DNA of 64,000 nt from Yuukianura sp. NJ FZ-2021 (taxonomy: Eukaryota). The notes under the pieces were generated by a model. It saw only the letters and a list, made by a program, of their open reading frames with translations, did no database searches and was not told the DNA's origin. A program made the translations under genes and the position numbers. Location of the stretch: NCBI GenBank assembly GCA_046563655.1, contig CM102286.1, positions 14,942,001-15,006,000 of the forward strand. The letters are read 5' to 3'. Shown in pieces: positions 48 through 62,333 of this stretch; position 1 is the stretch's first letter, and each line of letters begins with the position of its first letter.

Positions 48-3000
48 TTGGTGAATGTTCCCGAAGATGCTAATGGTCTCCTTGACCTCAATTTCTTGGA
101 AGAGAGGTTAAAAGAAGCCTCGGAGAAGAGGGATGATCTGATTGGTGGAGAGGGGAAACGGAGGCTTCTAATTGGTGCTTTCTCGGCCGCTTCCAACATT
201 AGTGGAATTCCAACGAATGATGTTGCAGTGACTGTTCTGATGCACAAATATGGTGGGATTGCACTGTGGGACTACTCTGCAGCAGCCCCGCATGTTCAAG
301 TGGTCATGAATCCAGTAGTCTTCAGTTCGAATCAACCTCAGGGAGCGGCTAAAAAAGATGCTCTATATTTCTCTGGTCATAAGTTTGTTGGTGGACCACA
401 AACGCCTGGTGAGTTATTGCGAAACTTACAAAAATTATCACCAATTTTTTGGCAATAACCACACAGCTCCACGTGCCTGCTTGGTGTGAAAAACAAAAAG
501 AAAAAATAGCTTTTAGTTTTGTTTTTTGCAAAAAGTTTTGCATATAGCCCATCTTACTTACAGTTTTCTTGCATTTGCTGTAATTTTTGCACATTGATGC
601 TGGAGGGATCTCAACTAGATCTGTTTTTTGTTTGTTGTTCTTTGTCTGGTTTGAGTTGGGATGAAAATGAAGCGTGAGAAATTCCATTAGGATTTTGAGA
701 GATGAAGAGATGAAGGTCACCTTTAGAAGATTGCCTGTCAATGTGCGATTGGACTCGGAGGAAGTGAGTCGTGCTCACAAAAGTCGTTAAAGTTATTTTT
801 AGTTTCCTTTTGAGACAAAGTGATTTTGACTTTGGGAGTTAACTGACAGCTTGAGGTTGAAAGTGTTAATTTCTCAATTAGCAAATACTTTAATTAGCTA
901 AATTTTTGGTTTTTCGCAGGGGTACTTGTTGCAAAGAAATCCTTGTTTGAAAATAGAAGTTCAAGTGTTGGTGGAGGTGGAACAGTTTTCTTTGTCACTG
1001 CTGACTCACATCGATACTTGAAGGTTAGTGGATTTTAATTTTAAATTTAAACTTTTTAAGTTTCGAAACCTACTTTATGCATTTACCGTGTCTGTCTGTT
1101 GGCCACAATTATCTCGAATTTCCCAATATTTCCGGAATCTGTTAAATTCGTTCCTGGTCAAAGGTCTTTTTTTCAAAAGGTCAAAGGTCAACTTTTTCAT
1201 GTTACCGTTCATAAAACCATAGTATACTTAAGTTCAAAAGGGCATGGCCTTGTCACAAGTCGTTTGGGAATGCGTCTTTCGCTACTTTCGTACACTCTGG
1301 GTTACATCCGGATTTTTATTAATATATTACTCCCATTTGATATATGTTAGTACGTTTTTGTTCGCTTGACCTGAATTTTCATGTGAGAACAGAAAGTGGA
1401 ATCTCTGGGTGTTGAAATTTGGAGAATCATTTATTTTTGTAACTTTTGCTTTTATTTTTGCAGAATGTTGAGTTTCGAGAAGAGGGCGGAACGCCAGGGA
1501 TTTTAGAGAGCATTCGACTTGGTTTGGTCTTTCGTCTTCAACAAACTGTTGGATTCCAAAATATTATTTCACGTGAAGCAGTTTACGTCAAGTGAGAAAC
1601 AAGGAAAAATCAAAAATTTAAAAGAAACAAGATTTTGAGTGTCAAAATGAGTCATTTGGGAAATTAAAAATTTGGATTGTGGTTTTTGTCTATTAGGAAA
1701 ACACTTGCGGATTGGTCAAAAATTCCAGAAATCAAGGTTTTAGGACCAACTCACTCTGCACGTTTGCCCATTTTATCATTTCTGATTGAACATGGTCCAT
1801 CGGTGAGTTGACAATTTTGTTTTGTACTTTTTTGATGTTGGTCATTTTGACTTTTTTGTTTACCCAACAATAATTTTTAGTAAACAAAAAGTTAATTAAA
1901 ATGTCATTTTGTGTGTAAATAGGGATACTTTCTACACTACAACTTTGTTACTGCTGTTCTCAATGATTTGTTTGGAATTCAAAGTCGAGGTGGATGTGGC
2001 TGTGCTGGACGTAAGTTGTAAAAAGAAAACTTTCAAAATTTTGAAGAATTTTGAGTAATTTTCAAAATTTCGATTTTTCAGCTTATGCACAGAGTTTGCT
2101 AGGAATCGATTTGGAATTGGCACGAACTTATGAAAATCTTCTGCTCGAAGACTGGTAAGTGTCTACTGCGTTGTTACTTTTGAAATTTCTCAGAACTTTG
2201 TTATGCCAAAGTCGTACTTTGTTATGCTAAAGTTGTTAAAGTTAATTTTAACGTTGTTTTGTTAAGTTGATTAAGATTGAGCAATAACTTTCATACGGAG
2301 AAGTTGTTGATAGTTTTAGTAGTTTTTGGTAAACTGTCTATTGAATGCGTTACTCCAAAAGCTGGGGAGAAGTTGTGGAAATTGATGAGGTGACACAATG
2401 ATGATGTTGAATTTATGACTTTTGGTTTTTGGAGGCGATTAGACCGTGACCATTTGAGAAGACAGCAAGAGGGGTCCTCTTATGAGATTTTCCGTCCAGG
2501 ATTCACACGCATTTCTATTCCGTATCATGCCTCTCATCAAGAAGCAGACTACGTGTCTCAAGCAGTCCAACTAATTGCAAAACACGCCTGGAAAATACTG
2601 CCACTCTACTCTTTCAATCCAGAAACAGCAGAGTTCCACCATCACATCAATTACGTACGAAACCTCTTCACTTTTCAATTTAAAGTTCTCACCTCAAAGT
2701 TCTCGTTCTAAAAAGAGTTTGTGTCATTTGTGGATGCAGCTCCATCAACGACGACTGTGGTTGAGCAACGCCGTCTTTGAAGTTGACGGAATCCGCTCAA
2801 AAGAACGCTCAAGAAACAATAGTGAAGATTATCCAAATTACGAAGAGTGCCTGCAACAAGCCAGAAATATTTTTCAAAACGCCCAAAACGTAAGTTCCTT
2901 AAGTGTTTAGCATTTATTAATTATTACAATACTAAAGAAATGTGGTGGTTTTTTGTCCGTGTTTGGAAACTTCTGGACAGTTGTGGACACTTCTTATCTT

Positions 3001-5828
3001 TTGATCTTTTTGTGAAAAATAATTTTTTTTTTTCGTTTTTAAATAACTTTTGGAGAAAAAATTGTCAAATGTTATTGTGAAATTGTGATTTTGGATGACT
3101 ACTGAACGAGTCTGCGGCGGAGCCCCAGTGAGTATGTGAAGCATGCTTGTGACTACAAAAATTAAATGTGTTCCATTTTTGCATAACGTGGGATTAGGTT
3201 TTATCAACCACTTGACTTAAGTTTTTGTGGTATTATCGCTTGTTTTGCGCAATTGTGAGCCTTGTAGAGTTAAAAGTGTGAAAACAAAGGATTAATTGAA
3301 GTGCAAACTGCATTGTGTTTGTATTTTTATGTTTTTAGCTTTGCAAAAGGAGGAACTTATCAAACCAGACTCTGCTCTTCCATCCCTCGGTGGCCCATCT
3401 TCGGTGGTTTCTACTTCCGTCAGAAAGTAGAGATTTGGTCCTGGAAGAGTCCAGTCCAGCACAAATCAAGAGTCAACGTCCCTTTCAAGTCAAAGTGTTT
3501 CCAGCATCAGAAAGTACGGACGACCTCAGTTGCCAAAACTACGAAGTGGGCAGTGTGCCTTACCAAATGATGCAGTCCGTCTGGGGAACAGCGGAGTCAA
3601 GGTCACCGGTCCACCATATCCGCAGTTCTCAAAGTGGGAGTGACCTCAACTGGACTTCTGGAAACGAAAGTGACAATGAACTGAGGATTCCAGGCACGAC
3701 GGTCACCGGACCGTCGATTCGGTTCTGCGGATCATTCGGCCGAACTGGACGAGAGTCGCCGCTGGTGCTGGCCAAAGTGGACACCCCCATGTCCACGTCC
3801 ATGTCAACGGAACTTCATGGACAGGTCGTGGACGGACAGGTCCGGCCTTGGACGAGTCATGGACAGACCGCCTCAGGCAGTCCAGTGAACATTAGTCAAA
3901 ATGAAGCACAGTTTCAAAGTTTCTCACCGTATCCGGAATACTCACCGCCGCCACATCAACCTACTCAGCCTTATGTCAACCAGTATCCGCAGTATCCTTC
4001 ATCCTCTCCAGTCCCAATTCAACAAAATACTGGCAGCATCAACTTTTACAACAATGGACACACTGTGCAGTCTCCAGTACTGCCGTGCTGTCCTTCTCCT
4101 TTTCCCTCAAATGTGATTTCTCCAGGCATGAATTGTAGTGCACAGTACCCCAATCAAAATGCTGGAAATTATCAAAGTCAAAGTCCAGTTGGAGTGCAGA
4201 CTCAGTTTTTTGATAGGTCAGGGTCACCGCAAGGTCAAGAGCCAAGATCTGGACACACTTTGAGTCCAGCCAGACAGCTCAAGAGTAGTTTTTCACTGGA
4301 TTCTGCTTTTGCAGAAGGGAACAATGAGGACCGTGTGAACATTGCTATGCGCAGAGTCACAAATGAAATTGCACTGGAACTGAAGTCAGAACTGCGTGAA
4401 GTGATTAGTCAAGTGGAGCAGGGGATTGATCCAGACGGAATACGGGAGAGAGCGAATAGTTTTAATACGAAGCATGATCGGAGGCTGGATGCACTCAAAA
4501 AGAGAACAAGGACTTTAAGTGGCCATGTTTTTAATCAAATCCATCGACATCATTCGGAGGAACCGAAAATACCCGACCTCAAGCATCTTCTTCTCGAAGA
4601 AGTTCCGACTTCGGATGGACCGAACGCGAAATCGCTGCCAGCGCTAAAGTCACTTTTACACAAAACTGTGCCGCTCAAGAGTCAAACTGTGAAGAAAAAT
4701 AAAAATGGAACGGCAGGAGTCGGGTGGCGAAGTCCCCCAAAAGAAATTTTCAAACCGACACTGGAGGTAGACAAAACTAAAATTGAAAGTCCTTGGTTTT
4801 TTTAAAATGTTCAGTTTAAATTTTTTTTTATATTTCAGGCTGTTCGTGAGTTTTGCATGATCAAGAACGGTGACAAGATTTTAGTTTGTCTGAGTGGCGG
4901 GAAAGACTCGCTTTCTCTGCTCCATACGATGCGTCAGTTGCAGTTTTTGTTGAAAAAAGAAGAGATTGAGTTTGACCTTGGAGCAGTTACGGTTGACCCC
5001 GCCAGTTCTGCCTATGACCCCCGACCACTCATTCCCTATTTAAAAGCACTCGGAGTCCCTTATTTCTATGAAGAGCAAGGCATCATGCCTCTAGCACTGG
5101 ACAAGGGGTCATCTGGGGTCACTTCTATTTGTAGGTTAGTCATTTTGAGACATTTGATCAGTGATTTGACGTTTCTTGACCTTGAGATAAATTGGAACTT
5201 GGCTCCACTTTAAATTGAAATGTTTGGATTTTATTTTTAGCTTCTGTAGCCGAATGAAACGAGGGAGGATTTATGCGACGGCGAGACGAGAGGGGTACAA
5301 TGTGCTGGCCTTTGGACAGCATTTGGATGACCTTGCAGAAAGTTTCATGATGTCCACTTTTCATAATGGACTCTTACGTACTATGAAAGCCGCCTATACT
5401 ATCAAGTAAGATTGTGCAAGAAAAAAATCGAATAATCGATTACTAATTGAAGTTAATCGATTGATTTTGTTTTAAACAGGGAAGGAGACTTGCGTGTGAT
5501 TCGTCCGTTTGTGAATGTGAGAGAAAAAGCGCTGAGAGATTTTGCAGAGTCGAGTGGACTGCCGATTATTCCTGAAAATTGTCCAGCATGTTTCACGGCT
5601 CCAACGGAACGACATCGTGTGAAGCAGTTGCTGGCTCAACAGGAAATTTTGTTTCCGATGCTGTTTGTGAGTCTCCGCTCAGCACTGCATCCGCTCATGG
5701 CCATCAACAAAACGGGAATGGAAAGTACAGTAAGGTCCAGAAAGAAAAAGAGCGGGGAAAATGGAACGATTGACAACAACAACCAATCAGGAGCAGCGGA
5801 ACTGCTGGATGATGGAGACAGCGAGTGA
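48..5828 (+). CDS. Multi-exon fusion protein: class V PLP-dependent cysteine desulfurase-like domain, S/P/Q-rich linker, TtcA-like tRNA thiolase (PP-loop); 5' end lies upstream of the window
   Basis: GT-AG exons join in frame (approx. 48-408, 920-1023, 1464-1591, 1697-1802, 1923-2010, 2083-2154, 2435-2656, 2740-2889, 3339-4766, 4839-5133, 5242-5406, 5480-5828). N-part motifs: WDYSAAAPH, FSGHKFVGGPQTPG (PLP Lys), REEGGTP, RGGCGCAGP. C-part motifs: LSGGKDS, CSFCSRMKRG, GQHLDD, RVIRP, NCPAC. Confidence 0.88.
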
Positions 5829-6243: not shown

Positions 6244-7063
6244 TTAGCATTTGCAACCAACGGAGCACTTTGATCCCTCTGCGTCTCCGCAGTTGCAAGT
6301 TACTGTGCAGCAGTCGGATTTTCCAGCATCTCCGCAGTTGCGAGATACTGTGCAGACACACGGTTTTCCAGCATCTCCGCACTTACAAGTTACCTCGCAG
6401 CATTTTTCAGCATCTCCGCACTTACAAGATACTGTCAACGTGCAGCAGTCGGGTTTTCCAGCATCTTCACACTTGCAAGTTACTGTGAAGACGCAGCATT
6501 CCGGTTTTCCAGCATCTCCGCATTTGCAAGATACTGTCGCTGTGCAGCAGTCGGAATTATCTCCGCACTTGGAAGTTGTCACCGTGCAGCAATCCGATTT
6601 TCCAGCATCTCCGCACTTGGAAGTTGTCACTGTGCAGCAGTCGGACTTTCCAGCATCTCCGCCCTTGCAAGTTATAACGCAGCAGTCGCATTTCTCAGCA
6701 TCTCCGCACTTGCAAGATACTGTGAAGACGCAGCATTTTCCAGCATCTCCTCGCTTGCCGGATACTGTCAACACACAGCAGTCGGATTTTCCAGCATTTC
6801 CGCACTTGCAGGCTACTGTTATTTTGCAGCAGTCGGATTTTCCAGTTGCTTCACACGATTGAGCAGTTGTGTTTTCTGTAAATGGAAAAAAGTTACAATG
6901 GTGCTAGGAATTTAGAAAATTCGTAAAAAAAAAAACTTGAAAAGCAGTGTTGTAGAAAGGCAAATTTTGAAAAGAAGAGTTGAAAAAAGGCAAATTTAAA
7001 AAAAGAACAATTTTAAGAAATAACATTTTGAAAAGTTGACTTACTTTGGCAGCAGGACGACAT
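6244..7063 (-). CDS. Long repeat-built metallothionein-like Cys-rich protein (~216 aa)
   Basis: Exon 1 7063-7045 (MSSCCQ, gtaagt donor) splices in frame to exon 2 6875-6244. About 12 repeats of C-K-C-G-D-A-G-K-S-D-C-C-x-V-T, C-terminal GCKC, almost no aromatic residues, MREs upstream. Confidence 0.85.
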
Positions 7064-11064: not shown

Positions 11065-11377
11065 CACACCAAGTGCTTCGCAAAAACAAACATTTCAAAA
11101 CAAAAAATTGGTTTTTCAAAAATTTACATTGGTACAAAAGCGTTAAACCATTTCTTAGTTAGTAAGAATATTTAAAAAATGAAAGAAAAACTATAATCAG
11201 CAGATTCAGTGGGTTAGACACGCCTTTGAAGAGAAAGTTATTGATTTTAATTTGAAATGGAAAATGAGCACAAGGAGAGGGAAAGTTTCTCAAAAACTAA
11301 AAATAACACTAGTTTTACGAAATACAAAAAGGTGAAATTTTGAAGCGGTTGTTTCATTTTTTTTTTTTGGAAGTGAG

Positions 11378-13249
11378 ATGGAATCAAGTGTGCAGGAAAA
11401 GTTCAACAGGAATCTGGAGGTAGAAATTCAAATTTTCAAACCAAAACATTTTCGTTTTCTTAGTAAATTTCAAAATAATGTTTGTATTTTGAAGGTTTTG
11501 GAAGAAGTGTTGAGCTACTTGGATTTGGTTGATTTGAAATCAGCGAGATTCGTGTGCAAAAGTTGGGCGTTCGCAGGGGGGAGGGCCTTCAGTCACAAAG
11601 TTCTCGTGGCACATGAACCCTCGTCGCTCGCCAATTTGGAAGAAGTTGCTCAATTTTTAGCCAAACATCACATCAGACACACACTCAAACTGTCTCTGCT
11701 CATGAAATTTCCTTGGCCATGCGACAGAGACTACTACCCGGCATATTCGCTTCACAGCGACCCAACCACCAACACCATTGCCCACTTCAAACCATACTTT
11801 ACGCAGAACAATTGTGACTTGTACGTTGATTGCATTTCAAAAATGTTGCTGCGTCCCCTAGCAACGACCAACACCACAACTGAACTGTACTTGGAACTGA
11901 TGCTGCGGGATGCTGGAGATGCTGGATTCCTCGTCAGCATTTTGACACAAACCACTCATCTGCGCAAACTCGCTCTTGTGCTGGTCAACTCCACGGACGA
12001 AGCAGTCCAAAGTCTGCCGCTCAATTTCAAACTCCCGCCAACTTTCCAGTCACTCGGATTCCGACTTTTTGTGAAACATGAATACGCAGAAGCAATAGTT
12101 GTAATTTAGCAAAAATTCATGAAAATATGAAAGTTTGAGGAATTGTACGAAAAATGAATTGTTTTAAAAATATAGTTGGTGTTCTTTCTTTTGTTGTAGA
12201 CTGGTCATGAGTATCCAGATCAATGGACACTGGAATCCTACATTCACTTTTTGAAAGTATTCGAAAAGCGACTTCGTTTTCTCGACTGTACTTCATATCC
12301 TCTGATCCGTCCACACTTGGATTGCCATACGTACAAAGTCCGATCATGTTCCAAAGCTCTAAAAATTATTTGTGACCTTGATGACCTTGCCCTGCGCAAA
12401 TTTAAAGGGCTGCGTGCCAATCTGTCGAATTATATTTGTTTAACCCCCATTCCGAGACCACTCAAGTACTTGGCAGTCACCAGTGCCAGTCATGACGAGT
12501 ACAGCGGTGTTGAAGAAAACGATTTCAGACGGGAACCTTTCGTTCCCAAAACGCTTTTACCATACGCAACAACTTTAAGGATTTGCCAACTATTTTTGTA
12601 CCCTAGAGATGACTACATCACTTGTAAGAATACGATGCCCCTATTACCAGTACTGGAGGAGTTGAGTATTGTGCAGAGGTCGGCATTCCACGAAACTGAT
12701 ACTCGATCCAGCGATGTCATGAGCCTCCGACTTTTGTTTCTGGTGAGCAATCGATTGGCACAATTCAAAATTTTGAACTATTATTTTTTTGGTTGTCAGG
12801 GTGGATCTGAAAAGTTTAGTTCGGTTCTGCCATCGCTGAAGTCACTCACATACATTTCCGTCCCGTTTGTGGAAAGTACACAAGAATTCACAGAAATTTT
12901 CCCCGGGAAAGACGATAGTGGACTTCCGATTGAAATTCCTCAGCTGGAATTCCTCGTGGTTTCCATGACAACGGACTGCCTCTCTCCGGAACTGAGCCAA
13001 GTGATGGGCATGTTCCCCCAACTCAAAGTGTTGAGACACCTCAGGAAAGTGGAAGGTGGATTTGGAGTTTGTGACCACCAGAGGACCCTTAAGGGCTCAC
13101 TCACCTCGGGGCACTTGACGGGAAAAGTTCTACCACAAGAACCACTACTACAAAACAGTTTCCACCAACTGCGCCTGCGCAGTCACGAATATCCTTTCTT
13201 TTACTCTTATGTTGAACCACACGAGTCGCAAGTCGAGTGTAATGATTAA
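11378..13249 (+). CDS. F-box protein with divergent LRR-like C-terminus
   Basis: VLEEVLSYLDLVDLKSARFVCKSW F-box motif. An intron at ~12101-12200 joins ORFs 11378-12109 and 12251-13249 in frame. Confidence 0.7.
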
Positions 13250-17300: not shown

Positions 17301-20300
17301 TTCTGTTGTTGGTTTCAATTGCGTGTCGGAAGGAATTTGAATTGGATTTACAGTTGCTTCCAGACTCAAATCTGTCGATCCAATTGTATTTTCGTTGCTG
17401 CTACCACTAGTATCGACTTGTTGCTGCTGATGATGCGTGATGAGCGTCTGCAACTTGAAATTCAGATCCTCCAGTGTGTAAGGGGCACTGAAAAGATTAA
17501 CAAAAAAACAAAAGTTTCAAAAAAGTTGTTTTTATTTTTTGATTTTTTTAATATTACCAGTCGTTAACTGTCGTTTGTTGAGACAGTTTCCTCTGTTGTA
17601 TGACGAGTGGCTCAATGAAAGTTTGTTCCGGAGTGGAGAGTTGCGATGACACAATTTCATCTACCGGCGTGACCTTGAACCGTGACCCACCCACTCCAAT
17701 GTCATCGTCATCATCATCAATCAAGTAGTACTCGGAGACTAGTGGCATGATGCCTGGATTCTGTTGAATTTCATGAATAATGACGTTGAGTACTTGGATA
17801 AAGTTGCGAGAGTAGGTGGGACTCAAGTAATTAGAACTGATGAGATTCTTGCAAATGTCGATTGACTTCGTGTTGGAGTCACTCAGGTCGAATTTGAAAG
17901 TGATTGTTTTGGTTTTGGGGTAATTCGTTTCCAGTTTCAGTTCTAACTCGGTATTTGTTATGTTCAGAATCTTGAGTTTCGGTTTGAGAGATTCAATCAA
18001 CTTGAGTCTTTTGCGATGAGCCTTTTTGTGTTGAAGTGTTTGTTCAATTGGGGCTGACATGACTGCTTGCGGAGGTTGTTGCTGACTGTACTCCTGGGCA
18101 GACAAAATGTCCAACTGAAAACATTCAAAATTAAACAGATCAACATCAATTACATCAACAAATGTCAATTCGTCCTTGAAGCACATGGAGTTAAAAGAGA
18201 CGGTTGTTAACACACAGCACATTAGCAAATAATGCAAACAAAACCTACAAAAATTTTCCTCAAAATTGAGTTAAACTTTGAGTTAATTGTTACTTGAGTT
18301 ATTTGTGGTTAAGTTGAATAAAAACCTAGAAAAGTTAGAGCAAAAAGGAATGTTGAGTAAATGTGTGTTGAGTTATTAAATTACTTTGAGGTTGGGTGTT
18401 GTTTTAGAATGGATCTGAGTAGTAGTCGTAGCAGAATCCAGTTTCACTTCAGTTGTAACTAAATGATTTCTAACGTCTAATAAATTAGATTCAACCGGTT
18501 TATCATCATCAATCATCTACAAAAACAAACAACAAGTTATATATAAAAAAAGAGAGAAAAAGAAGCTGCAACAGAAAATTGATGCTGGGAAGCTTTTAAA
18601 AAACGGCATTGAAGCAAAGAGAAAACTTGCGTCAAGAGTTCAACGCCTTTTGGCTCAACAGTGAATTTGATCAACAAAGGTTACCGGTGGCGGTTGTTGT
18701 GATTGATCAAGTGACGGTGGTTGTTGCAAAATGACGACAGTAGTTGGGCGTTGAAGCCCATAGTTAGATCCTGTTTGGTTTCCTGTTTGTTGAATTGGGT
18801 AATTGATGTAAAATGAGGAATTTTGTAAGTTTTGTTGTGAAGCTGTTGTTGTAATTATCGTGTTTTGTAGTGGATGGAGTTGTGTTAGCGGTTGTGGATT
18901 GGGCATGTAGTTGGTTGTGTACAGTTGTGGAGCAGGACTCTAAAATCAGTCGAAAAAAAAAACGTTTCATCATCGTTTTTGAAATATAAAACTTACGGTT
19001 TCAACAACCTGCTGCTGGATATAAATCGGTCCTTGGTAAATCGGATGATGATGGTCTCCAGTGTACGTCACATAGCCAGAATCCATATGTTGGTATTCTA
19101 TCAACATGCACAAAATTGAGCAAAATCGATCAAAATTCATAAAAATCAAAATGATTTATACCAGTGGGTTGCGTAAGTGTGTGAGCTACAAGCTGCTCTT
19201 GTTCAATTTTCTTTTTGTTTTCATCCAAATCATGAAGGAGATTCGTAATATTCTTTTTCAACATTTTAGCAACGAGCTTGCTGTCTTCTTCAATGAGAAG
19301 TCCCGTTTTAGCCTAAAAATGGTAATGTTAGATTTTTGATAAAACTTTTTAACAAAAGTGACTTACCATTTCCTGGGCAATTTCATCCGGATTATCATTT
19401 TCAATGTCAAATTCAAATTGAATGGCTTCATTCTCCTTGTACTTGTTGGTTGACCTCTTCTTTGGATCCATCAGTCTCAGTCTAAATTCCACTTTCTTCT
19501 CTGTTAGTAACTTTTCCTTTGAAACCAATTCAATTTTGAGTCCAATTGTGTCTTCTTCGGTTGTGAAAAACGGATGATTGATCAAATCCTTGACACTCGG
19601 CCGCTCGTCTTTGTTCAATCGAATGCACTGATCAATGATTTCACGGATTTCGTTTGATTCGATCTTGTCGTAACTGGCAGGTTTAATCCCCTGTGAAGGA
19701 AAAACACTCAATTACTCAATTTTTCAAATTAATTAATTGTGTTTTTTACTACTTTTTTAGTACTTTTTACTACTATTCTTTTAAAGTTTGAACTCACACT
19801 GACGACTTTTTTGTAAATCTGAGCTGGTCCAGTGCATTCAGAATATGGATATTCACCAGTGGACATCTCGAGCATGCACATTCCAAAGGCATAGATGTCC
19901 ACTGTTTCGTTGTAGTGTTCATCATACATCTCTGGAGCCATGAACTCCGGAGTTCCAATGATCGACTTCACAAAAGACTTGTTCTTGAGAGTGGCCAATC
20001 CCAGGTCACCAATCTTCACTGAACCAGTTGTTCCAGATATAAAAATATTGTCACACTTCAAATCCCTGCAAAACAATTAAACGCCAAGTTAATTAATTAA
20101 CTAATGATTAGCAAGTCAAAGTCAATGCTTTACCGGTGAATGATTGGCGGAACACGAGAATGTAGAAAGTAAAGCCCCTTCAAAATCTGCTTGCACCAGG
20201 ATCGCAGTACTTTCAGATTAATTTTCTTGAAACGACGTAGATACCTGGAAACAAAAGAAATTAAAAGTTAATTATAAAAGTTTAAGTTAATCATTAAAGA

Positions 20301-24139: not shown

Positions 24140-24421
24140 CGAGACTGGAAATAATTAATTGTTCAATTAGTCGATTAATTGCTCAATTAATCGATTAATT
24201 CCCCCGGGACTTGCCACTAGTAGTGGCTACAGAGTTGAAAATCTGATTTTTTTATACCTTTTATGCTACAGTATTTAAAAAAACTAACTTTTTTGTAGTT
24301 GTACCGCGACAATTTTTAAATTAAAACGTTGCCTGGGTTACAGTATTTGTTGCAATAATGCGATTTAGAAATTTTAAATTTTCGCGGGTCGTCGGTGGTC
24401 GGACTGACCGAAATCCAAATC

Positions 24422-25968
24422 ATGGCTGGACGTTCAAGTAAAAAACTGTTTTGTATCAAGTACCTTTGTTGTTTATGCATTGAACTTCCGCAGCATAAGA
24501 CACTTTTCCGGTACGACATGATTGAAGAGCTGGACTCAGCTGTCCAGGAACTCTATGACCAAGAAAACTCGGAATCTTTTCTTAAAAAGTACTTAACTCC
24601 CGGAGTGTACAACACTATGAAGTATCGACAAACCTACGAAGGAAACACACTGCTCGAAGTCATTATCTCAGGAACGAAGAATCCCGACAGTCTCTTTGGC
24701 GTCTACGCTCCAGATCCCGAATGTTACCGAACGTTTGGAGAGCTCATGTACCCCATCATATGTGCCATCCACTTCCTACCGAACATTGTGTCTCATCCAC
24801 GCAAAATCCGGTTCGGACCGTCCGACTTCCTCACATTTCTGGACATGGAAGATCGATATGTCAAATCCATCCGATTCGAACTTTCGCGGAACATTCTCGG
24901 ACACAAGTTTATTCCATCCATGACCAAAGTGGAGTTACAAAATCTGCAGGGGATTCTGTCAGCCCATTTTCAAAGTTTCAAAAGGTCGGACTTGCATGGT
25001 CGTTACGTTCGGTACAAAGGTTTGGAGGAACACACGGAAAAAGTGCTGACGAACCTTGGTCTCATGTTTCCAGCAACTGACAAGTTCCTGGAAGATGGAC
25101 TTGGACGAAAGTTCTGGCCAATGGGTCGTGGAATCTTCATTCCAGGCAAGGTTCCTTGACAACCGAATTGTAATCCCTACAACAGGTTGTCCAATGACGC
25201 AATCTTCTGCACCAATCCCATTTACATTACATGCAAAAGATTACCATTTAAAGACAGATTTGCTATTTTCAAACAAATTTTAAAGGTTCCAGTTATTAGA
25301 CAACCTGGTGTAGAAAAAGTGTTTATTTGTTTACGAACCTTGATTCCAGGGGCCATGGACTTTGCCATTTGGGTCAACGTTGAAGATCACCTCAAGTTAG
25401 TTGCTTCAGAACGATCTGGAGATTTCAAAAAGTGTTACGAACGATTCATTCAACGTAAGAAATTAAAAAAAGGAATCGATTAATTGAGTTGGTGACTAAG
25501 ATTTTTGTAATTTCAGTACACAAGAAGCTTCATCGTCGATTCAAGTTTCATTTTGATGAGCATTTGGGCTATGTCAATGTTTGTCCAAGTAACCTTGGAA
25601 CAGGAGTTCACGCTGAAATTGAGTTAGAGTTGCCAATACTCCAGCGTCATCCAGAACTGATTCAAAAGATTTGCAACGAGTATTGGTTGTCTACGCATGG
25701 ACATGGAGGAGAACACTCCAGCATGACTCCAGAGTCAACATTTTTCATCCGCACAACTCGAGCTCTTGGAATTGACGAGTACAACACGGCCATGCCAGTT
25801 TATGAAGGAGCCTTGGAATTACTCGTGACGGAGCAGCGATTCTCCAAGGAGCTGAGAAGACTGCAAATGGAAGGAGCTGGACTCGATTCGGTAGGCCTTA
25901 ATCTGTTCCCAAAAGACGCAAAAATCAAACCAGCTCATCCTTCAAAACATGTCCATTTGGCAATGTAA
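24422..25968 (+). CDS. Divergent arginine/phosphagen kinase-like protein
   Basis: SFLKKYLTP, GVYAPDPECY, FWPMGRGIF, WVNVEDH, HLGYVNVCPSNLGTG, GGEHS. Introns at 25146-25349 and ~25455-25516. Confidence 0.85.
25147..25342. mobile_element. MITE with CAAGGTTC/GAACCTTG termini and perfect 8-bp TSD (ATTCCAGG), forming an entire intron
   Basis: TSD at 25139-25146 and 25343-25350. Subterminal inverted repeat CTACAACAGGTTGTCCAATGAC / GTTATTAGACAACCTGGTGTAG. Related copy at 46338-46558. Confidence 0.85.
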
Positions 25969-29605: not shown

Positions 29606-30357
29606 ATTACAATTTCTCAATTAACCCCAATTTAATTCATGTAAGATATTCCAAAAACTAAATTAAAAATTAACTAATTGAAGTGAACAAATTGACTTTG
29701 TCTTTTCTTTTTGAAGTTTTAGCTTCCCTCTTATCAGTCGTACGTGACTTGTTTTACAGTTTTTTGTCTGGCGGTTGCCTAATCCTGTGACTTCTGTGAC
29801 CGGCCACTTTTAATTGATTCTTGAGCCTAAATGTCTGCTGAAGTCAAAGTTTTTAAGTGGAACTAAATGGTCCATAAACTTTGAAGCTCTAAGCATACGA
29901 GGAAGTATATGCTTTGTAGAACTAAAACATTTATCTTTAGACACTTTAGTTGTTTCCCATTCATTTTCCGTCCTTAACATCTTAACATTGACACATCAAA
30001 GATAAGAAAGTGACGACTTTTGAAAATTAGTTCACAGTAAGCACTCTTTTCTCCTTTGGTCTTCGACGGCTGAGGTCACGTAGGCAAAAGACGCTCTCAA
30101 ATTAAGCATTTTAGAGTAAAGTTTTTAGTCATTTCAAAAATTCTACAACACAGAAACGCTCTTAAATTTTGAAACTCGCGATTTCTGGACACAAAATCAC
30201 TCCAAATTCATCGTGGCCTCGAGCCGACACATCAGTAGTGTTCAGGTAAGCAAAGATTTTTTAAATTCTAGATTCTTTTTCAATTTCTGATTTTGTCGAA
30301 TTCGGATTTTCAAAATGTAGTACAAAATGTATTTTGAAATTCCAGATTCAGCATTGG

Positions 30358-31323
30358 ATGAGCTTGGAGAAGATGGAACTCGGAAACTCGCCGATAGATG
30401 GCGCTGATACCGAAATTCTGTTTCACGGCATTCCGATTTCTCAGTATTCCCTTTCGGAAACTCAAATTGTCCAGAATCTGGACTCTCCTGATTGGCTGCT
30501 GCGCAAACTCCTCTTCTTCGGCAGTGCTATTGCGTCAATCAGAGATTTAGAACACCTTGTTCCTGGTCCAATTGCAAATACAGTTTTCGGATCCCTCGTA
30601 CTTCTCGTCCGTGAATTTTACAAGTTAGACGAATTCCAAATTCGCTCAATTCTGACAAATCCGGGGATTAGTCGGATCCGACATTTAGTCATTTCAAATT
30701 GTGGTTCAGCCGAGTATTTTCTAGAAGCTTTCTACGCTGCTCGCATAATTTCTGGCGAAATTCTTCTGGAAGAGTTTCCTTATTATGAAAACTACCAACT
30801 TCTAATGTCATTTGAATCTAAATGTCTCCAAGCTTACATCGGAAGTTCCAAATACCGGGAAATTTCAAATGTTGCGTTCATCGGTTCAGGGCCACTTCCT
30901 CTGTCTTCAATTGAGCTGCTCCAGCATTTACCCCGAGGGGCAAAGGTCATGAACTTTGACCTCTCCGATGAAGCCATTGCTCTTGGAGAATCTATCGTCC
31001 GACTACAAAATCTCTCTCATCGCATCTCATTTTCAAATGCTGCGGCACTCGAAATCCAAGATTTGAAGCATGTTGATGTTGTCTATTTAGCAGCTCTCGC
31101 TGGTGGCTCCAATTTCGAAAAACGCCAAATTACGGAACATTTACACAAAATTATGAAACCGGGATCTGTGCTGGTTGCAAGAAGTGCGAGTGGGCTAAGA
31201 TCTTTCATCTATGAAAAACTAACGGAATCTGATTTTGGCAAATTCAAATCTTTCCGCCATTTTGATCCCACGAACAAAGTCATCATCAACTCAATTGCAG
31301 TCGGAATGAAACTGGATTTTTAA
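30358..31323 (+). CDS. Nicotianamine synthase-like protein (intronless CDS, probable 5'UTR intron 30247-30345)
   Basis: Motifs FPYYENYQLL..FE, VAFIGSGPLPLSSI, DVVYLAALAG, K..I..HL.K.MKPGSVLVARSASGLRSFIY, VINS, all typical of the NAS family. Confidence 0.88.
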   Translation: MSLEKMELGNSPIDGADTEILFHGIPISQYSLSETQIVQNLDSPDWLLRKLLFFGSAIASIRDLEHLVPGPIANTVFGSLVLLVREFYKLDEFQIRSILTNPGISRIRHLVISNCGSAEYFLEAFYAARIISGEILLEEFPYYENYQLLMSFESKCLQAYIGSSKYREISNVAFIGSGPLPLSSIELLQHLPRGAKVMNFDLSDEAIALGESIVRLQNLSHRISFSNAAALEIQDLKHVDVVYLAALAGGSNFEKRQITEHLHKIMKPGSVLVARSASGLRSFIYEKLTESDFGKFKSFRHFDPTNKVIINSIAVGMKLDF

Positions 31324-36198: not shown

Positions 36199-39083
36199 TC
36201 ACTGTTTGAGTAAATTGTCAATACTGAAATTTAGGTTGAATTTGGATTTGTTCTTTTTGGATTTGGACTCCAACTCCTTTTTCAGTTCTTCCAAATTTAT
36301 TGTTATGCCACGAGCAGACAGCTTCGCTGCTTGCTTCTCCAGATTCTTACGGAGCTAGCAATGAAAAATCAAAATTCAAAATTTGGAAATTCCTTGATTT
36401 TCCAAAATGGGTTTCAAAATTTTGTAGTTTTCCGTACTTTTACCTTTCTCTCTCTGCGTAGCTTCTCTTTGTGTTCCAGTTCATCTGGAGGAATTGGTTC
36501 TCCAGAGCAAGTCTGCGGTTGTGAGTTGTGTGCTGGACGGCCAGGGCCCTTCTTCGTGTGTTCCCGCTTCCGCCATTTTGCTCTCCGATTTTGAAACCAA
36601 ACCTTTAAAAAAACCGGGCATTACAAAGTGTCACTAGGGTTGTTCAAGTTCCGTTCCGTTCCGGTTTCACCGAGGAACGGAAACGGTACTGCATGAACCG
36701 GAGTTTTTTGAAAATGGACGGAACTAGTTTAAAAATTGGGAAAAGGAAACAAAATGAAACGGCACCGAAAGTTCGTTCCAAAAAAATGTGGAAAGGGAAA
36801 CAAAACGACACCGGAACGAAACGGAAACGGAACAAAAAGTTTGTTTCCAAAATACGTGGAAACGGAACCAACAGTTCATTTCCAAAAAATGTGGAAACGG
36901 AAACGAAACGACACCTGAAATAAGTTCCACGGAAACGAAACGACAAGTGAAATAAGTTCCGTTCCGTTTCTGGCAACGGCACTTGACCAGCCCTAGTACT
37001 CAAAGTGTAAATCCCTATGTTGAAGTTATGTTGGCCTAACCTAATGCCACTCAATCTAATGACAATTTATTAAGGGCTTTGGGAGATGAAGCCCCAATTG
37101 CTTTGGAATCCCCGGGGAGTAGAGACTCCCTGGGCCTAAATCCCCATTTCAAACGCTCTCAAAAGCACCCACATTCTCACACTCTCTGTAATTATCAAAT
37201 TCATTTTGGGGGGAGTTTTTAACTTTAAAAAGTGTTTTTTAACTTACAGCCACTCTAGATTCTTTGAGATTGAGCCTAAGCGCGAGTGCCTCCCGCATGA
37301 AGACGTCTGGGTAATGACTCGTGAGAAAAGCCCTCTCCAGTTCGTCCAACTGCCACGTCGTGAAGTTCGTTCTGGAGCGTCGTCTGTGATTGGGTGGTGA
37401 GTTGGTGTCGTCTGATTCGTCATCGGAATGACTTCCGGTAGTGTCGACGGACTTGAAGAGATTGATGAGGTTGAAGGAGAGGGGGTTGGGAGGGGCGGGG
37501 GGCGAAGGGGCAAGGTCATTCGAGGAGTCTTCGTTGGAGTGACTGTTCCCTAGGTGATGGTGGGGGTGGTAGGACTTGAGAGGGGGGTGGGGGGCAGGAG
37601 GTGGCTGGGCGGGGGACGGGGAGCCACCACCTCTCACGTGACTCAGCCCTGTAAACACAAAAATACACTTTTTACAACTCTCATTCCACAGAAAAATTCA
37701 AAAAAAAAATCCATTTTAAACACTTGATTTAAAAAAAATAAAAATACACTTCATATAATTCTCAGTCCACTGAGAAAATCCATTTTTAGACACATTAAAA
37801 AAATACACTTTGTACAATTCTCATTCCATATAGAAATATTTCAAAAAATTAAGGTTCGGTGAACTTTAACTTTTTTTAAAATTTGGTTTGAAATGGAAGT
37901 GTAATTCCACGAATTACTTGCAATTTCATGAACAATTTAAAATTCAAGTAATTACTTTGACACTTGGAGCCCTTAATTGCCCGAAAATCATTGCTTTCTA
38001 AATTTCTTAGTTTATAATTACTTATTATTGGAAAGTCAATTAAATGCTAAAGTCATTAAGATGAAGAGTGTTAAGTGTGAATTTCTTAATTACTTTTCCA
38101 CTCACTCCATGATTAATGTCGCATGATGATTGATGCCAGGTTAGCTTACTTTCACATTTTGTTCAAAACATCACTTTTTTTTCAAAAAGTTTTTGTTTTT
38201 TAAAACTAAAATATGAGATTGAAAGTGTAGGAATGTTAAGAAGCGGGGTTTGTGCTAAGTTTTTGTGTGACCTTAATGACCCTGGACTGAAATGAAATTG
38301 ATTCAGTTGTCTAAATTAATTGAATTTCCAATTACTTGATTCGGGTTTGAAATGAAGTTGATTGTAAAAGTTCCATATTTTTTGTGCTGTAAATATGTGA
38401 GACTTTTGACCCTGTGAGTACAAAAACCGGTTTGGAGAGATGGAGGGAGTAACTATGCAATGTTTCTTCTTCTCTGTATTCCATCGTAATTATGAGAGTA
38501 AATATGATTACTTTAATTACGAGATCGATGACAACCTAATAGGGTTCCGCTTTTAACAAAAACTAAGGTTCAAATTCACAATTTAGAGAATCTACGAGTT
38601 AATTGAACTTTTAACGCACGTCAGATTTTTAGTCACACTCTGACTATACTTTTCCACCTGACGAATCAGAAAACTATTTTTTAATTACTCTATTAAATCC
38701 TAAATGTAATTTACTTCTAGATGGCGAAAAATCTCTAAACTTCTTTTTCCAAAATTTTGTTCGAAATCAACCCTTGCAACCAATTTAACATTAAACCAAT
38801 ACAATAAAAAAGCTTCTTTTTTTTCATGTCGAAAACAAAACCACGGCTTTCTCCGAACCTCAAAATTCTAAAATCACAGTATTTGCTTTCCTGAATTCCA
38901 TAAAAATATGAAAATTGATTAAAACAAGTTTTTCAGGTTTCAAAATTTTAAAAAATTACCATTTTCCTCTTGTTGTACGAGTACTTTTGGGCTGAAGTTG
39001 CGTACCATTCCAGAGGTGAGGAGGTGAAAGTACGGGAGGGAAGTTGACTTTAAATAGTCACTCAACTTCATCCTCTCGTTCAT
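36199..39083 (-). CDS. unc-4: Paired-like (Q50) homeobox protein of the Unc-4/Uncx family
   Basis: Exons ~39083-38960, 37648-37249, 36601-36444, 36355-36199. Homeodomain [23 protein letters not shown]...[11 protein letters not shown], followed by the [19 protein letters not shown] signature; C-terminal eh1-like FSIDNLL. Confidence 0.9.
36635..36995. mobile_element. MITE (hAT-like TAGGG termini) in an unc-4 intron
   Basis: Imperfect TIR TAGGGTTGTTCAAGTTCCGTT / AACGGCACTTGACCAGCCCTA; internal GGAAACGGAAC motifs; no clean TSD seen. Confidence 0.7.
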
Positions 39084-45200: not shown

Positions 45201-45282
45201 TGGCAACGGTGAGGTTCGAACTCACGCCTCCGAAGAGACCAGTGCCTAAAACTGGCGCCTTAGTCCACTCGGCCACGTTACC
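45201..45282 (-). tRNA. tRNA-Leu (anticodon TAG)
   Basis: GGTAACGTGGCCGAGTGGACTAAGGCGCCAGTTTTAGGCACTGGTCTCTTCGGAGGCGTGAGTTCGAACCTCACCGTTGCCA forms a cloverleaf with a long variable arm; oligo-T terminator downstream. Confidence 0.93.

Positions 45283-46277: not shown

Positions 46278-62333
<16,056 letters not shown>

Follow-up and report, generated by a model that had tools for sequence, protein, structure and literature searches.

A springtail gene joining a SufS-type desulfurase-like module to a TtcA-like module, probably a self-supplied synthase of 2-thiocytidine in tRNA

The window analysed here is a 64,000-nt stretch from the springtail Yuukianura sp. NJ FZ-2021 (GenBank assembly GCA_046563655.1, contig CM102286.1, positions 14,942,001 to 15,006,000 of the forward strand). 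At positions 48-5828 of its plus strand lies a gene of 12 exons in which a class V, pyridoxal 5'-phosphate (PLP)-dependent desulfurase-like module (the N-module) is followed, after a long linker, by a TtcA-type PP-loop module (the C-module). The fused protein is probably a self-supplied synthase of 2-thiocytidine at position 32 of tRNA (s2C32). The gene structure, the domain families and the conservation of catalytic residues are established at the level of sequence, and every chemical step proposed below is carried over from homologs. A preliminary description of the window, prepared from the letters alone, had joined the two domains into one frame by their splice phases. This reading was borne out by 12 exons with GT-AG borders and 1155 codons free of internal stops, and all six motifs it had named (SGHK, RGGCGCAGP, SGGKDS, CSFC, GQHLDD and CPAC) were recovered.

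The exon structure was read from the sequence and checked by script. AG acceptors precede all 12 exons, GT donors follow all 11 internal exon ends, and the phases match throughout; the joined exons comprise 3468 nt, that is, 1155 codons and a TGA stop at 5826-5828, with exon 9 by itself forming an open frame of 476 codons. A fusion reading frame of this kind lies far beyond chance expectation. When the whole window was queried by tblastn with P0002, a full-length relative from Orchesella dallaii, exons 1-3 and 5-12 were recovered in collinear order (E 1.8e-128 for the C-terminal exon group and 7.5e-42 for exon 1), and exon 4 was found inside one match that spans introns 3 and 4. The spliced model is 57% identical to P0002 over model residues 1-551 and 51% identical over residues 596-1122, and at the junctions the exon lengths fit this protein to the exact residue. 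More broadly, springtail proteins with lengths of 1370-1541 aa are collinear with the model, and its nearest relatives are springtail proteins with 57-59% identity in the N-module and 73-77% in the C-module, best matches that by themselves point to a springtail, or an animal closely related to springtails, as the most likely source. Two of the motifs, RGGCGCAGP and CSFC, are each formed only across an intron and thus provide strong support for the splicing pattern. Model residue 1 corresponds to P0002 residue 210, so that some 200 residues of the N-terminus are expected upstream; the window carries the 3' four-fifths of the gene, and the 5' exons lie outside its start.

The N-module is encoded by exons 1-8 and the beginning of exon 9. 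Exon 1 (48-408) ends in phase 1, contributes the class V PLP fold, and is matched on its own by the Pfam Aminotran_5 model at E 5.5e-4; within its FSGHKF motif, SGHK occupies 372-383 and the PLP lysine codon 381-383. Exon 2 (920-1023), with the elements GVLVAKK...GGGGTVFFV...HRYLK, was recovered by tblastn with P0002 at 74% identity, and exon 3 (1464-1591) encodes NVEFREEGGTPGILESIRLGL, which aligns with RFEAGTP of SufS. The module continues through exon 4 (1697-1802) and exon 5 (1923-2010), the latter terminating in RGGCGCAG, to exon 6 (2082-2154; 79% identity by tblastn with P0002), which completes the proline of CAGP and encodes YAQSLLGIDLELARTYENLLLED.

Several comparisons place this module with the SufS/CsdA-type (group II) desulfurases. 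Among the 30 fused proteins of alignment A2, the SufS model matches 30 of 30, whereas two IscS models match one and two. The window model itself aligns with Escherichia coli SufS at E 1e-15 and with E. coli IscS at E 0.024 over only 40 aa. The listed Protein Data Bank (PDB) sequence relatives are all cysteine desulfurases or close kin; most bear the name SufS or CsdA, one is a cysteine sulfinate desulfinase, and 8d8s is the best at 103 bits. For the tardigrade protein P0029, the AlphaFold model has a high predicted local distance difference test score (pLDDT) for most of residues 50-639, and the listed PDB matches returned by Foldseek are all of SufS type, with target-normalised template modelling (TM) scores of 0.73-0.80. 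Judged by sequence and predicted structure, the N-module is thus SufS/CsdA-type desulfurase-like rather than IscS-type. It shares with the SufS/CsdA group, represented by SufS of E. coli and SufS of Bacillus subtilis, the fold, the lysine of SxHK, the EHH(A/S)N motif and the R-x-G-x-x-C-A-x-P loop. However, it is only 25-27% identical to E. coli SufS, it adds a C-terminal extension of about 150 aa that is predicted to be folded, and, unlike the group II enzymes with their SufE/SufU partners, it has no known partner. Sequence comparison makes it a subfamily separate from SufS, some 170 aa longer than the E. coli protein.

The alignment with SufS also bears on catalysis. The preliminary description had singled out the SGHK lysine and a candidate persulfide cysteine in RGGCGCAGP, and both are borne out by the alignment: FSGHKF aligns with FSGHKL of E. 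coli SufS, which contains Lys226, and does the same with solved SufS chains, whereas SRGGCGCAGP aligns with VRTGHHCAMP, the Arg, Cys364, Ala and Pro being in register and the loops of equal length. In the gene, the RGGCGCAGP motif is split between 1986-2010 and 2082-2083, with cysteine codons at 1995-1997 and 2001-2003. It is the second of these that takes the position of SufS Cys364, as it does when P0002 is compared with three solved SufS-type chains, and this residue is the likely persulfide cysteine. The two histidines of the SufS RxGHHC loop are not kept, being replaced by C-G or C-A. Both cysteines of the resulting CxC pair are invariant in all 30 fused proteins and also in the stand-alone long class V proteins (15 of 15), and the desulfurase Cys, Arg, PLP-Lys and EHHSN motifs are retained in the N-module.

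The N-module comprises about 575 residues rather than about 400, and over its full length it proved to be homologous to a separate family. Stand-alone bacterial proteins (564-582 aa; Streptomyces, Nocardioides and others) match residues 56-645 of P0002 and 44-620 of P0029 from one end to the other with 40-50% identity, the extension and the closing ...LRWF.LP.E motif included. Stand-alone animal proteins (Octopus, Macrostomum and Biomphalaria) align with the module as well. In the window, the extension that separates this long class V family from SufS starts in exon 7 (2435-2654), continues through exon 8 (2740-2889) and ends at the start of exon 9, where the motif reads LRWFLLPSE and the N-module closes at about 3440; in the AlphaFold model of P0029 this segment is confidently predicted to be folded. 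A scan of species-representative prokaryote genomes detected at least 594 loci encoding relatives, of which the best 80 are mostly from Actinomycetota, with some from Kofleriaceae, Gemmatimonadota and Chloroflexi. The source names listed for the bacterial members are generic ("aminotransferase class V-fold PLP-dependent enzyme"), and we know of no characterised member of the family, for which no literature search was made. One new element contributed here is that the N-module belongs, as judged by end-to-end sequence homology, to this uncharacterised family of about 570 aa that is also present in Actinomycetota, the stand-alone members of which differ in not being fused to TtcA.

Two observations concern the family at large. 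Its stand-alone bacterial members carry an invariant GGCxCAGPY loop. In addition, P0121 from Pseudolycoriella hygida (987 aa) combines oxidoreductase domains with a long class V module and has no TtcA domain; it may be a merged gene model.

The C-module starts within exon 9, from about 4725, with WRSPPKEIFKPTLE. Exon 10 (4839-5134) encodes the TtcA-type PP-loop domain, with SGGKDS at 4893-4910 and the first cysteine of CSFC at 5130-5132. The intron-split CSFC motif (5130-5134 plus 5241-5247; second cysteine at 5245-5247) is completed by exon 11 (5241-5405), which further encodes CSRMKRGRIY and GQHLDD (5314-5331), and exon 12 (5480-5828) supplies NCPAC (CPAC at 5580-5591), an acidic tail and the stop codon.

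Two full-length relatives, P0002 and P0029, were scored against family models. With the TtcA model of NCBIfam (NF007972) they reached 190.3 and 183.1 bits, respectively, against 50-52 bits for TilS_N, 44-46 for TtuA and 21-31 for NcsA, so that in both of them TtcA leads the PP-loop thiolase families by over 130 bits. The same model matches all 30 fused proteins (best E 7.8e-61) with the best E-value of all families, whereas the NcsA model reaches E≤1e-5 in nine. The description of this domain as TtcA-type, made earlier from its motifs, is supported by these results, and on family scores the domain does not group with CTU1/Ncs6, an outcome that had been named as fatal to the proposal. The extra CxxC zinc motifs of CTU1/Ncs6, previously noted as missing, are indeed not seen ahead of the PP-loop, the preceding 40 residues lacking any CxxC. 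CTU1/Ncs6/NcsA and TtuA have the superfamily and the PP-loop in common with the C-module, but their family scores fall far under that of TtcA, and, unlike them, the C-module implies no carrier of the Urm1/TtuB type. Its only PDB relatives by sequence are TtuA and NcsA chains (38 and 21 bits).

With TtcA of E. coli K-12 (b1344), the spliced model is 35% identical over 226 aa (E 2e-40), and it is likewise 35% identical to myxobacterial TtcA. The key motifs of the E. coli enzyme are in register: SGGKDS, CSFC with CSLC (Cys122 and Cys125), GQHLDD with GHHRDD, and CPAC with CNLC. SGGKDS and NCPAC each occur in 30 of 30 fused relatives, and SGGKDS together with the four cysteines of the C-module is invariant in all 30, from sponge to amphioxus. 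According to the accessible text of the E. coli study, Cys122, Cys125 and "Cys222" are required for s2C32 and for the [4Fe-4S] cluster, "Cys219" is dispensable, the in vitro reaction requires cysteine plus IscS, adenosine triphosphate (ATP) and dithiothreitol (DTT), and the cluster is oxygen-sensitive (PMC4081106). By alignment, CSFC and CPAC cover the three cysteines required for the cluster. The E. coli enzyme and the C-module have the same PP-loop, CxxC pair and GHxxDD, and the same ATP- and [4Fe-4S]-dependent thiolation at C2 is to be expected of both. They differ in that E. coli TtcA is a stand-alone protein of 311 aa that is described as taking its sulfur from a separate IscS (PMC4081106), whereas here the domain is fused to a class V module, and in a 2-residue insertion ahead of the last CxxC of the C-module. 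Sequence scores make the C-module TtcA-like, not an NCBI equivalog.

The residue numbers of E. coli TtcA differ between sources. The last CxxC is numbered 219/222 in the accessible text of PMC4081106 and 210/213 in the RefSeq translation (L001:11014-11949, minus strand), and a further cysteine is numbered 200 in the former and 191 in the latter. Cys122 and Cys125 agree, the offset of 9 being confined to later residues.

The two modules are separated by a linker that makes up most of exon 9 (3339-4766), where it occupies about 3456-4686 (model residues ~450-860, roughly 400), after the last N-module residues and ahead of the first TtcA ones. It is poorly conserved and rich in Ser (57 of 420 residues), Pro (40) and Gln (33). 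Identity to other springtails is 12-40%, except for one 50-residue block at 72-74%; a springtail-conserved helix within the linker lies at about 4359-4508. Nearly the whole linker is missing from the tardigrade protein P0029, in which the corresponding segment has about 65 residues (640-703) with pLDDT below 50. The linker is predicted to be disordered. A 72-nt, in-frame intron lies between exon 9 and exon 10.

Proteins with both modules are widespread. A search with the TtcA exon alone returned 467 longer proteins, the closest among the matches listed being those of springtails. Among the best 120 of the 467, fused proteins (PF00266 plus PF01171) were found in insects (mayflies, dragonflies, cockroaches, termites, thrips and aphids), in other ecdysozoans (springtails, crustaceans, chelicerates, tardigrades and one nematode), and in annelids, corals, one sponge, echinoderms, amphioxus and tunicates. 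No vertebrate appeared among the named rows of the matches listed (best 120 of 467; 120 of 770). A HMMER pass over 1.84 billion cluster representatives yielded 372 proteins at E≤1e-30, and the best 150 of these are for the most part long proteins in which the domain sits close to the C-terminal end. Ten of the HMMER matches were looked up; those named were Temnothorax ants, the apicomplexan Besnoitia besnoiti and a Gregarina, and the stramenopile Cafeteria roenbergensis was identified as a cluster member. All seven further proteins that were scanned carry both domains in the same N-to-C order. The fusion had been presented as an animal one: its presence in animals stands, but on sequence matches it is not restricted to them, since one apicomplexan, one gregarine and one stramenopile have it too. 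Each of the Trinity transcriptome open reading frames (ORFs) P0022, P0138 and P0161 carries both domains; therefore, single mRNAs exist in other species. The idea of the fusion is itself no longer new, with more than 100 fused proteins in public collections, in addition to a preprint.

Two of the proteins retrieved have unusual architectures. P0161, an EukProt Trinity transcript of 1176 aa, has a thioredoxin domain (PF00085, 51.8 bits) as its third module, at the C-terminus, in keeping with the need of TtcA for a reductant in vitro (DTT, as given in the accessible text of PMC4081106). In P0001 (ENA, 235 aa), the PP-loop exon peptide is repeated three to four times, suggesting exon duplication or an assembly artefact.

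In the full-text literature, a coverage that leaves most subscription journals outside, one work on the fusion was found, a bioRxiv preprint of September 2026 (10.64898/2026.09.27.754811). Its accessible text reports s2C32 in tRNA-Lys(UUU) of Aplysia and proposes as the likely enzyme LOC101861551 of Aplysia californica, an "IscS-TtcA" protein of 1177 aa with CsdA and TtcA-like domains (10.64898/2026.09.27.754811). The fused enzyme is proposed to be dedicated to s2C, and the fusion is stated to occur in 28 molluscs and, as data not shown, in "birds and insects" (10.64898/2026.09.27.754811). The suggestion in the preliminary description that such a protein may install an unrecognised modification has therefore been overtaken, in that s2C32 has since been reported in an animal tRNA and attributed to an orthologous fusion. 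The window gene has the features of this eukaryotic class V-TtcA fusion, namely one ORF, the domain order, CxC, CSFC and CPAC, and its orthology with the Aplysia gene is inferred from the description of the latter together with other molluscan and animal members. As described, the Aplysia protein has the same order of a class V/CsdA domain, a variable linker (405 aa in Aplysia) and a TtcA-like domain, and both proteins contain the PLP Lys, the CxC pair, SGGKDS and C...CSFC...CPAC. They differ in phylum, in their unrelated linkers, and in the N-domain, which was aligned to IscS there and is of SufS type here. The IscS-type label was rejected on the model counts and E-values given above. In the accessible text, the catalytic cysteine is "not identified", with Cys448, Cys450 and Cys588 as candidates (10.64898/2026.09.27.754811); the SufS register settles this question, as far as alignment can, for the second cysteine of the pair.

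How might the fused protein work? By homology with desulfurases, the N-module would move sulfur from L-cysteine onto the second cysteine of RGGCGCAGP as a persulfide. The C-module, if it behaves as E. coli TtcA does, would adenylate C32 of the tRNA with ATP and would then exchange O2 for sulfide carried on or near the Fe-S cluster. The conserved fusion suggests that the thiolase would thereby be freed from a separate desulfurase. The domain order is constant across distant eukaryotes despite turnover of the linker, which weighs for functional coupling of the two modules.

A wider proposal can be put forward only tentatively, the balance of our judgement being somewhat against it in its entirety. 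The fused protein may be an ancient eukaryotic enzyme of animals, alveolates and stramenopiles in which cysteine sulfur, mobilised outside the mitochondrial NFS1 route by the uncharacterised SufS-like branch of about 570 aa, is handed directly to the enzyme's own TtcA domain; the invariant CxC may form a two-cysteine relay that replaces SufE/SufU; and s2C32 may be a cytosolic tRNA modification that is widespread among invertebrates and protists but has been overlooked, the usual model organisms lacking it. Should the fused protein make s2C32, a modification regarded as prokaryotic would turn out to be common in the tRNA of invertebrates and of some protists, and such organisms would carry a dedicated cysteine-desulfurase module besides NFS1. 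This would bear on cytosolic sulfur mobilisation in eukaryotes and on the decoding by tRNA-Lys(UUU). The present analysis adds a clean ortholog model, the reassignment of the N-domain from IscS to SufS type, a likely persulfide cysteine, and fusions outside animals.

A number of results weigh against a self-supplied s2C32 synthase. Both modules score below the curated cut-offs of their families: the C-module reaches 190 bits against an equivalog cut-off of 272, and the N-module 134 and 114.9 bits (P0002 and P0029) against 475 for TIGR01979. Group II desulfurases normally need the acceptor protein SufE or SufU, and no such acceptor is evident here, though none was searched for. The bacterial homologs of the N-module offer no link to TtcA: a TtcA-like gene lies within 8 kb at none of the 80 best loci, no neighbouring family is common to more than seven of these 80, and a TtcA match is absent from two of three bacterial genomes carrying a long class V gene, the third having one match on a contig that was not compared with the class V locus. 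The ancestral role of the N-module was therefore not tied to TtcA. Moreover, stand-alone paralogs exist in animals, so the module need not be dedicated to TtcA; together with the bacterial homologs, they weigh against a strictly dedicated donor. The gene described here is known from genomic sequence alone. The literature covered contains no published genetic or biochemical link between the fused protein and s2C, and in the accessible text of the Aplysia preprint the gene and the modification are linked by co-occurrence only (10.64898/2026.09.27.754811).

The alternatives to be considered overlap, and the likelihoods attached to them need not sum to one. In the first, which is unlikely, the fusion couples expression only: the halves would act apart, through proteolysis of the linker or alternative transcripts, with the TtcA half fed by NFS1 and the iron-sulfur cluster/cytosolic iron-sulfur assembly (ISC-CIA) route and the N-module doing another job. 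The length, poor conservation and predicted disorder of the linker fit such an arrangement, as does the stand-alone occurrence of the N-module family in animals and in bacteria, where its members lack a TtcA link, and cleavage is raised as a possibility in the accessible text of the Aplysia preprint (10.64898/2026.09.27.754811). Nevertheless, the domain order has been kept from sponges to amphioxus, in alveolates and in a stramenopile despite wholesale replacement of the linker, the low-confidence linker of the tardigrade protein has only about 65 residues, and the 72-nt in-frame intron that follows the linker exon leaves no space for a separate promoter ahead of the first TtcA exon.

A little less probable still is that the N-module does not donate sulfur to RNA and instead serves the assembly or repair of the oxygen-labile [4Fe-4S] cluster in the TtcA domain to which it is fused, or catalyses a different class V reaction, for example as a selenocysteine lyase or cysteine sulfinate desulfinase. 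SufS/CsdA relatives include both of these activities, the SclA model matches 27 of the 30 fused proteins, and the histidine pair of the SufS loop has given way to C-G or C-A; the TtcA cluster of E. coli is described as oxygen-sensitive (PMC4081106). The retained Cys, Arg, PLP-Lys and EHHSN argue for a desulfurase, but do not separate cluster building from sulfur donation. The use of cysteine and a desulfurase by E. coli TtcA in vitro, as reported in the accessible text, also speaks for such an activity and separates neither option (PMC4081106).

We consider it improbable that the C-module thiolates a target other than C32 of tRNA, be it at a different position, in a different class of RNA, or on a uridine. 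The score under the TtcA equivalog cut-off and the identity of only about 35% to the E. coli and myxobacterial enzymes leave some room for this. In addition, no fewer than 150 distinct clusters (50% identity) match the fused-type domain with 230 bits or more, whereas separate BLAST comparisons yielded 113-138 bits for the TtcA proteins of E. coli and myxobacteria. However, every one of the 30 fused proteins has TtcA as its best family, with the wide bit-score margin noted for P0002 and P0029, and the sole eukaryotic s2C mapped so far, according to the accessible text of the preprint, is at position 32 (10.64898/2026.09.27.754811). Finally, a read-through of two genes, a pseudogene or bacterial contamination is extremely improbable and was rejected, given the spliceosomal introns with matching phases, the intact frame, the junctions shared with Orchesella, and flanking genes of animal type (WNK, arginine kinase, homeobox and F-box).

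These neighbours are an F-box ORF at 11336-12109 (plus strand), a WNK kinase exon encoding a CCTL2 domain at 17554-18270 (minus strand), two exons of an arginine-kinase-type ATP:guanido phosphotransferase at 24359-25968 (plus strand), and a homeodomain exon at 37239-37697 (minus strand). A tRNA-Leu(TAG) gene is located at 45201-45282 on the minus strand. Just downstream of the fusion gene, at 6277-6845, lies a tandem array of 45-51-nt units in about 9-11 copies with 70-75% matches. The array is open in three frames, its minus strand reading as Cys/Gly-rich, CKCGDAGK-like repeats, and it has no Pfam match. An AT-only 23-nt satellite at 49518-51548 (86.6 copies, 90% matches) accounts for the 12.5% GC bin of the window. 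At 30265-31323 (plus strand), an uninterrupted ORF of 352 aa has its match in nicotianamine synthase (PF03059, 166.6 bits); a gene for this enzyme is unusual in animals and might have been acquired horizontally.

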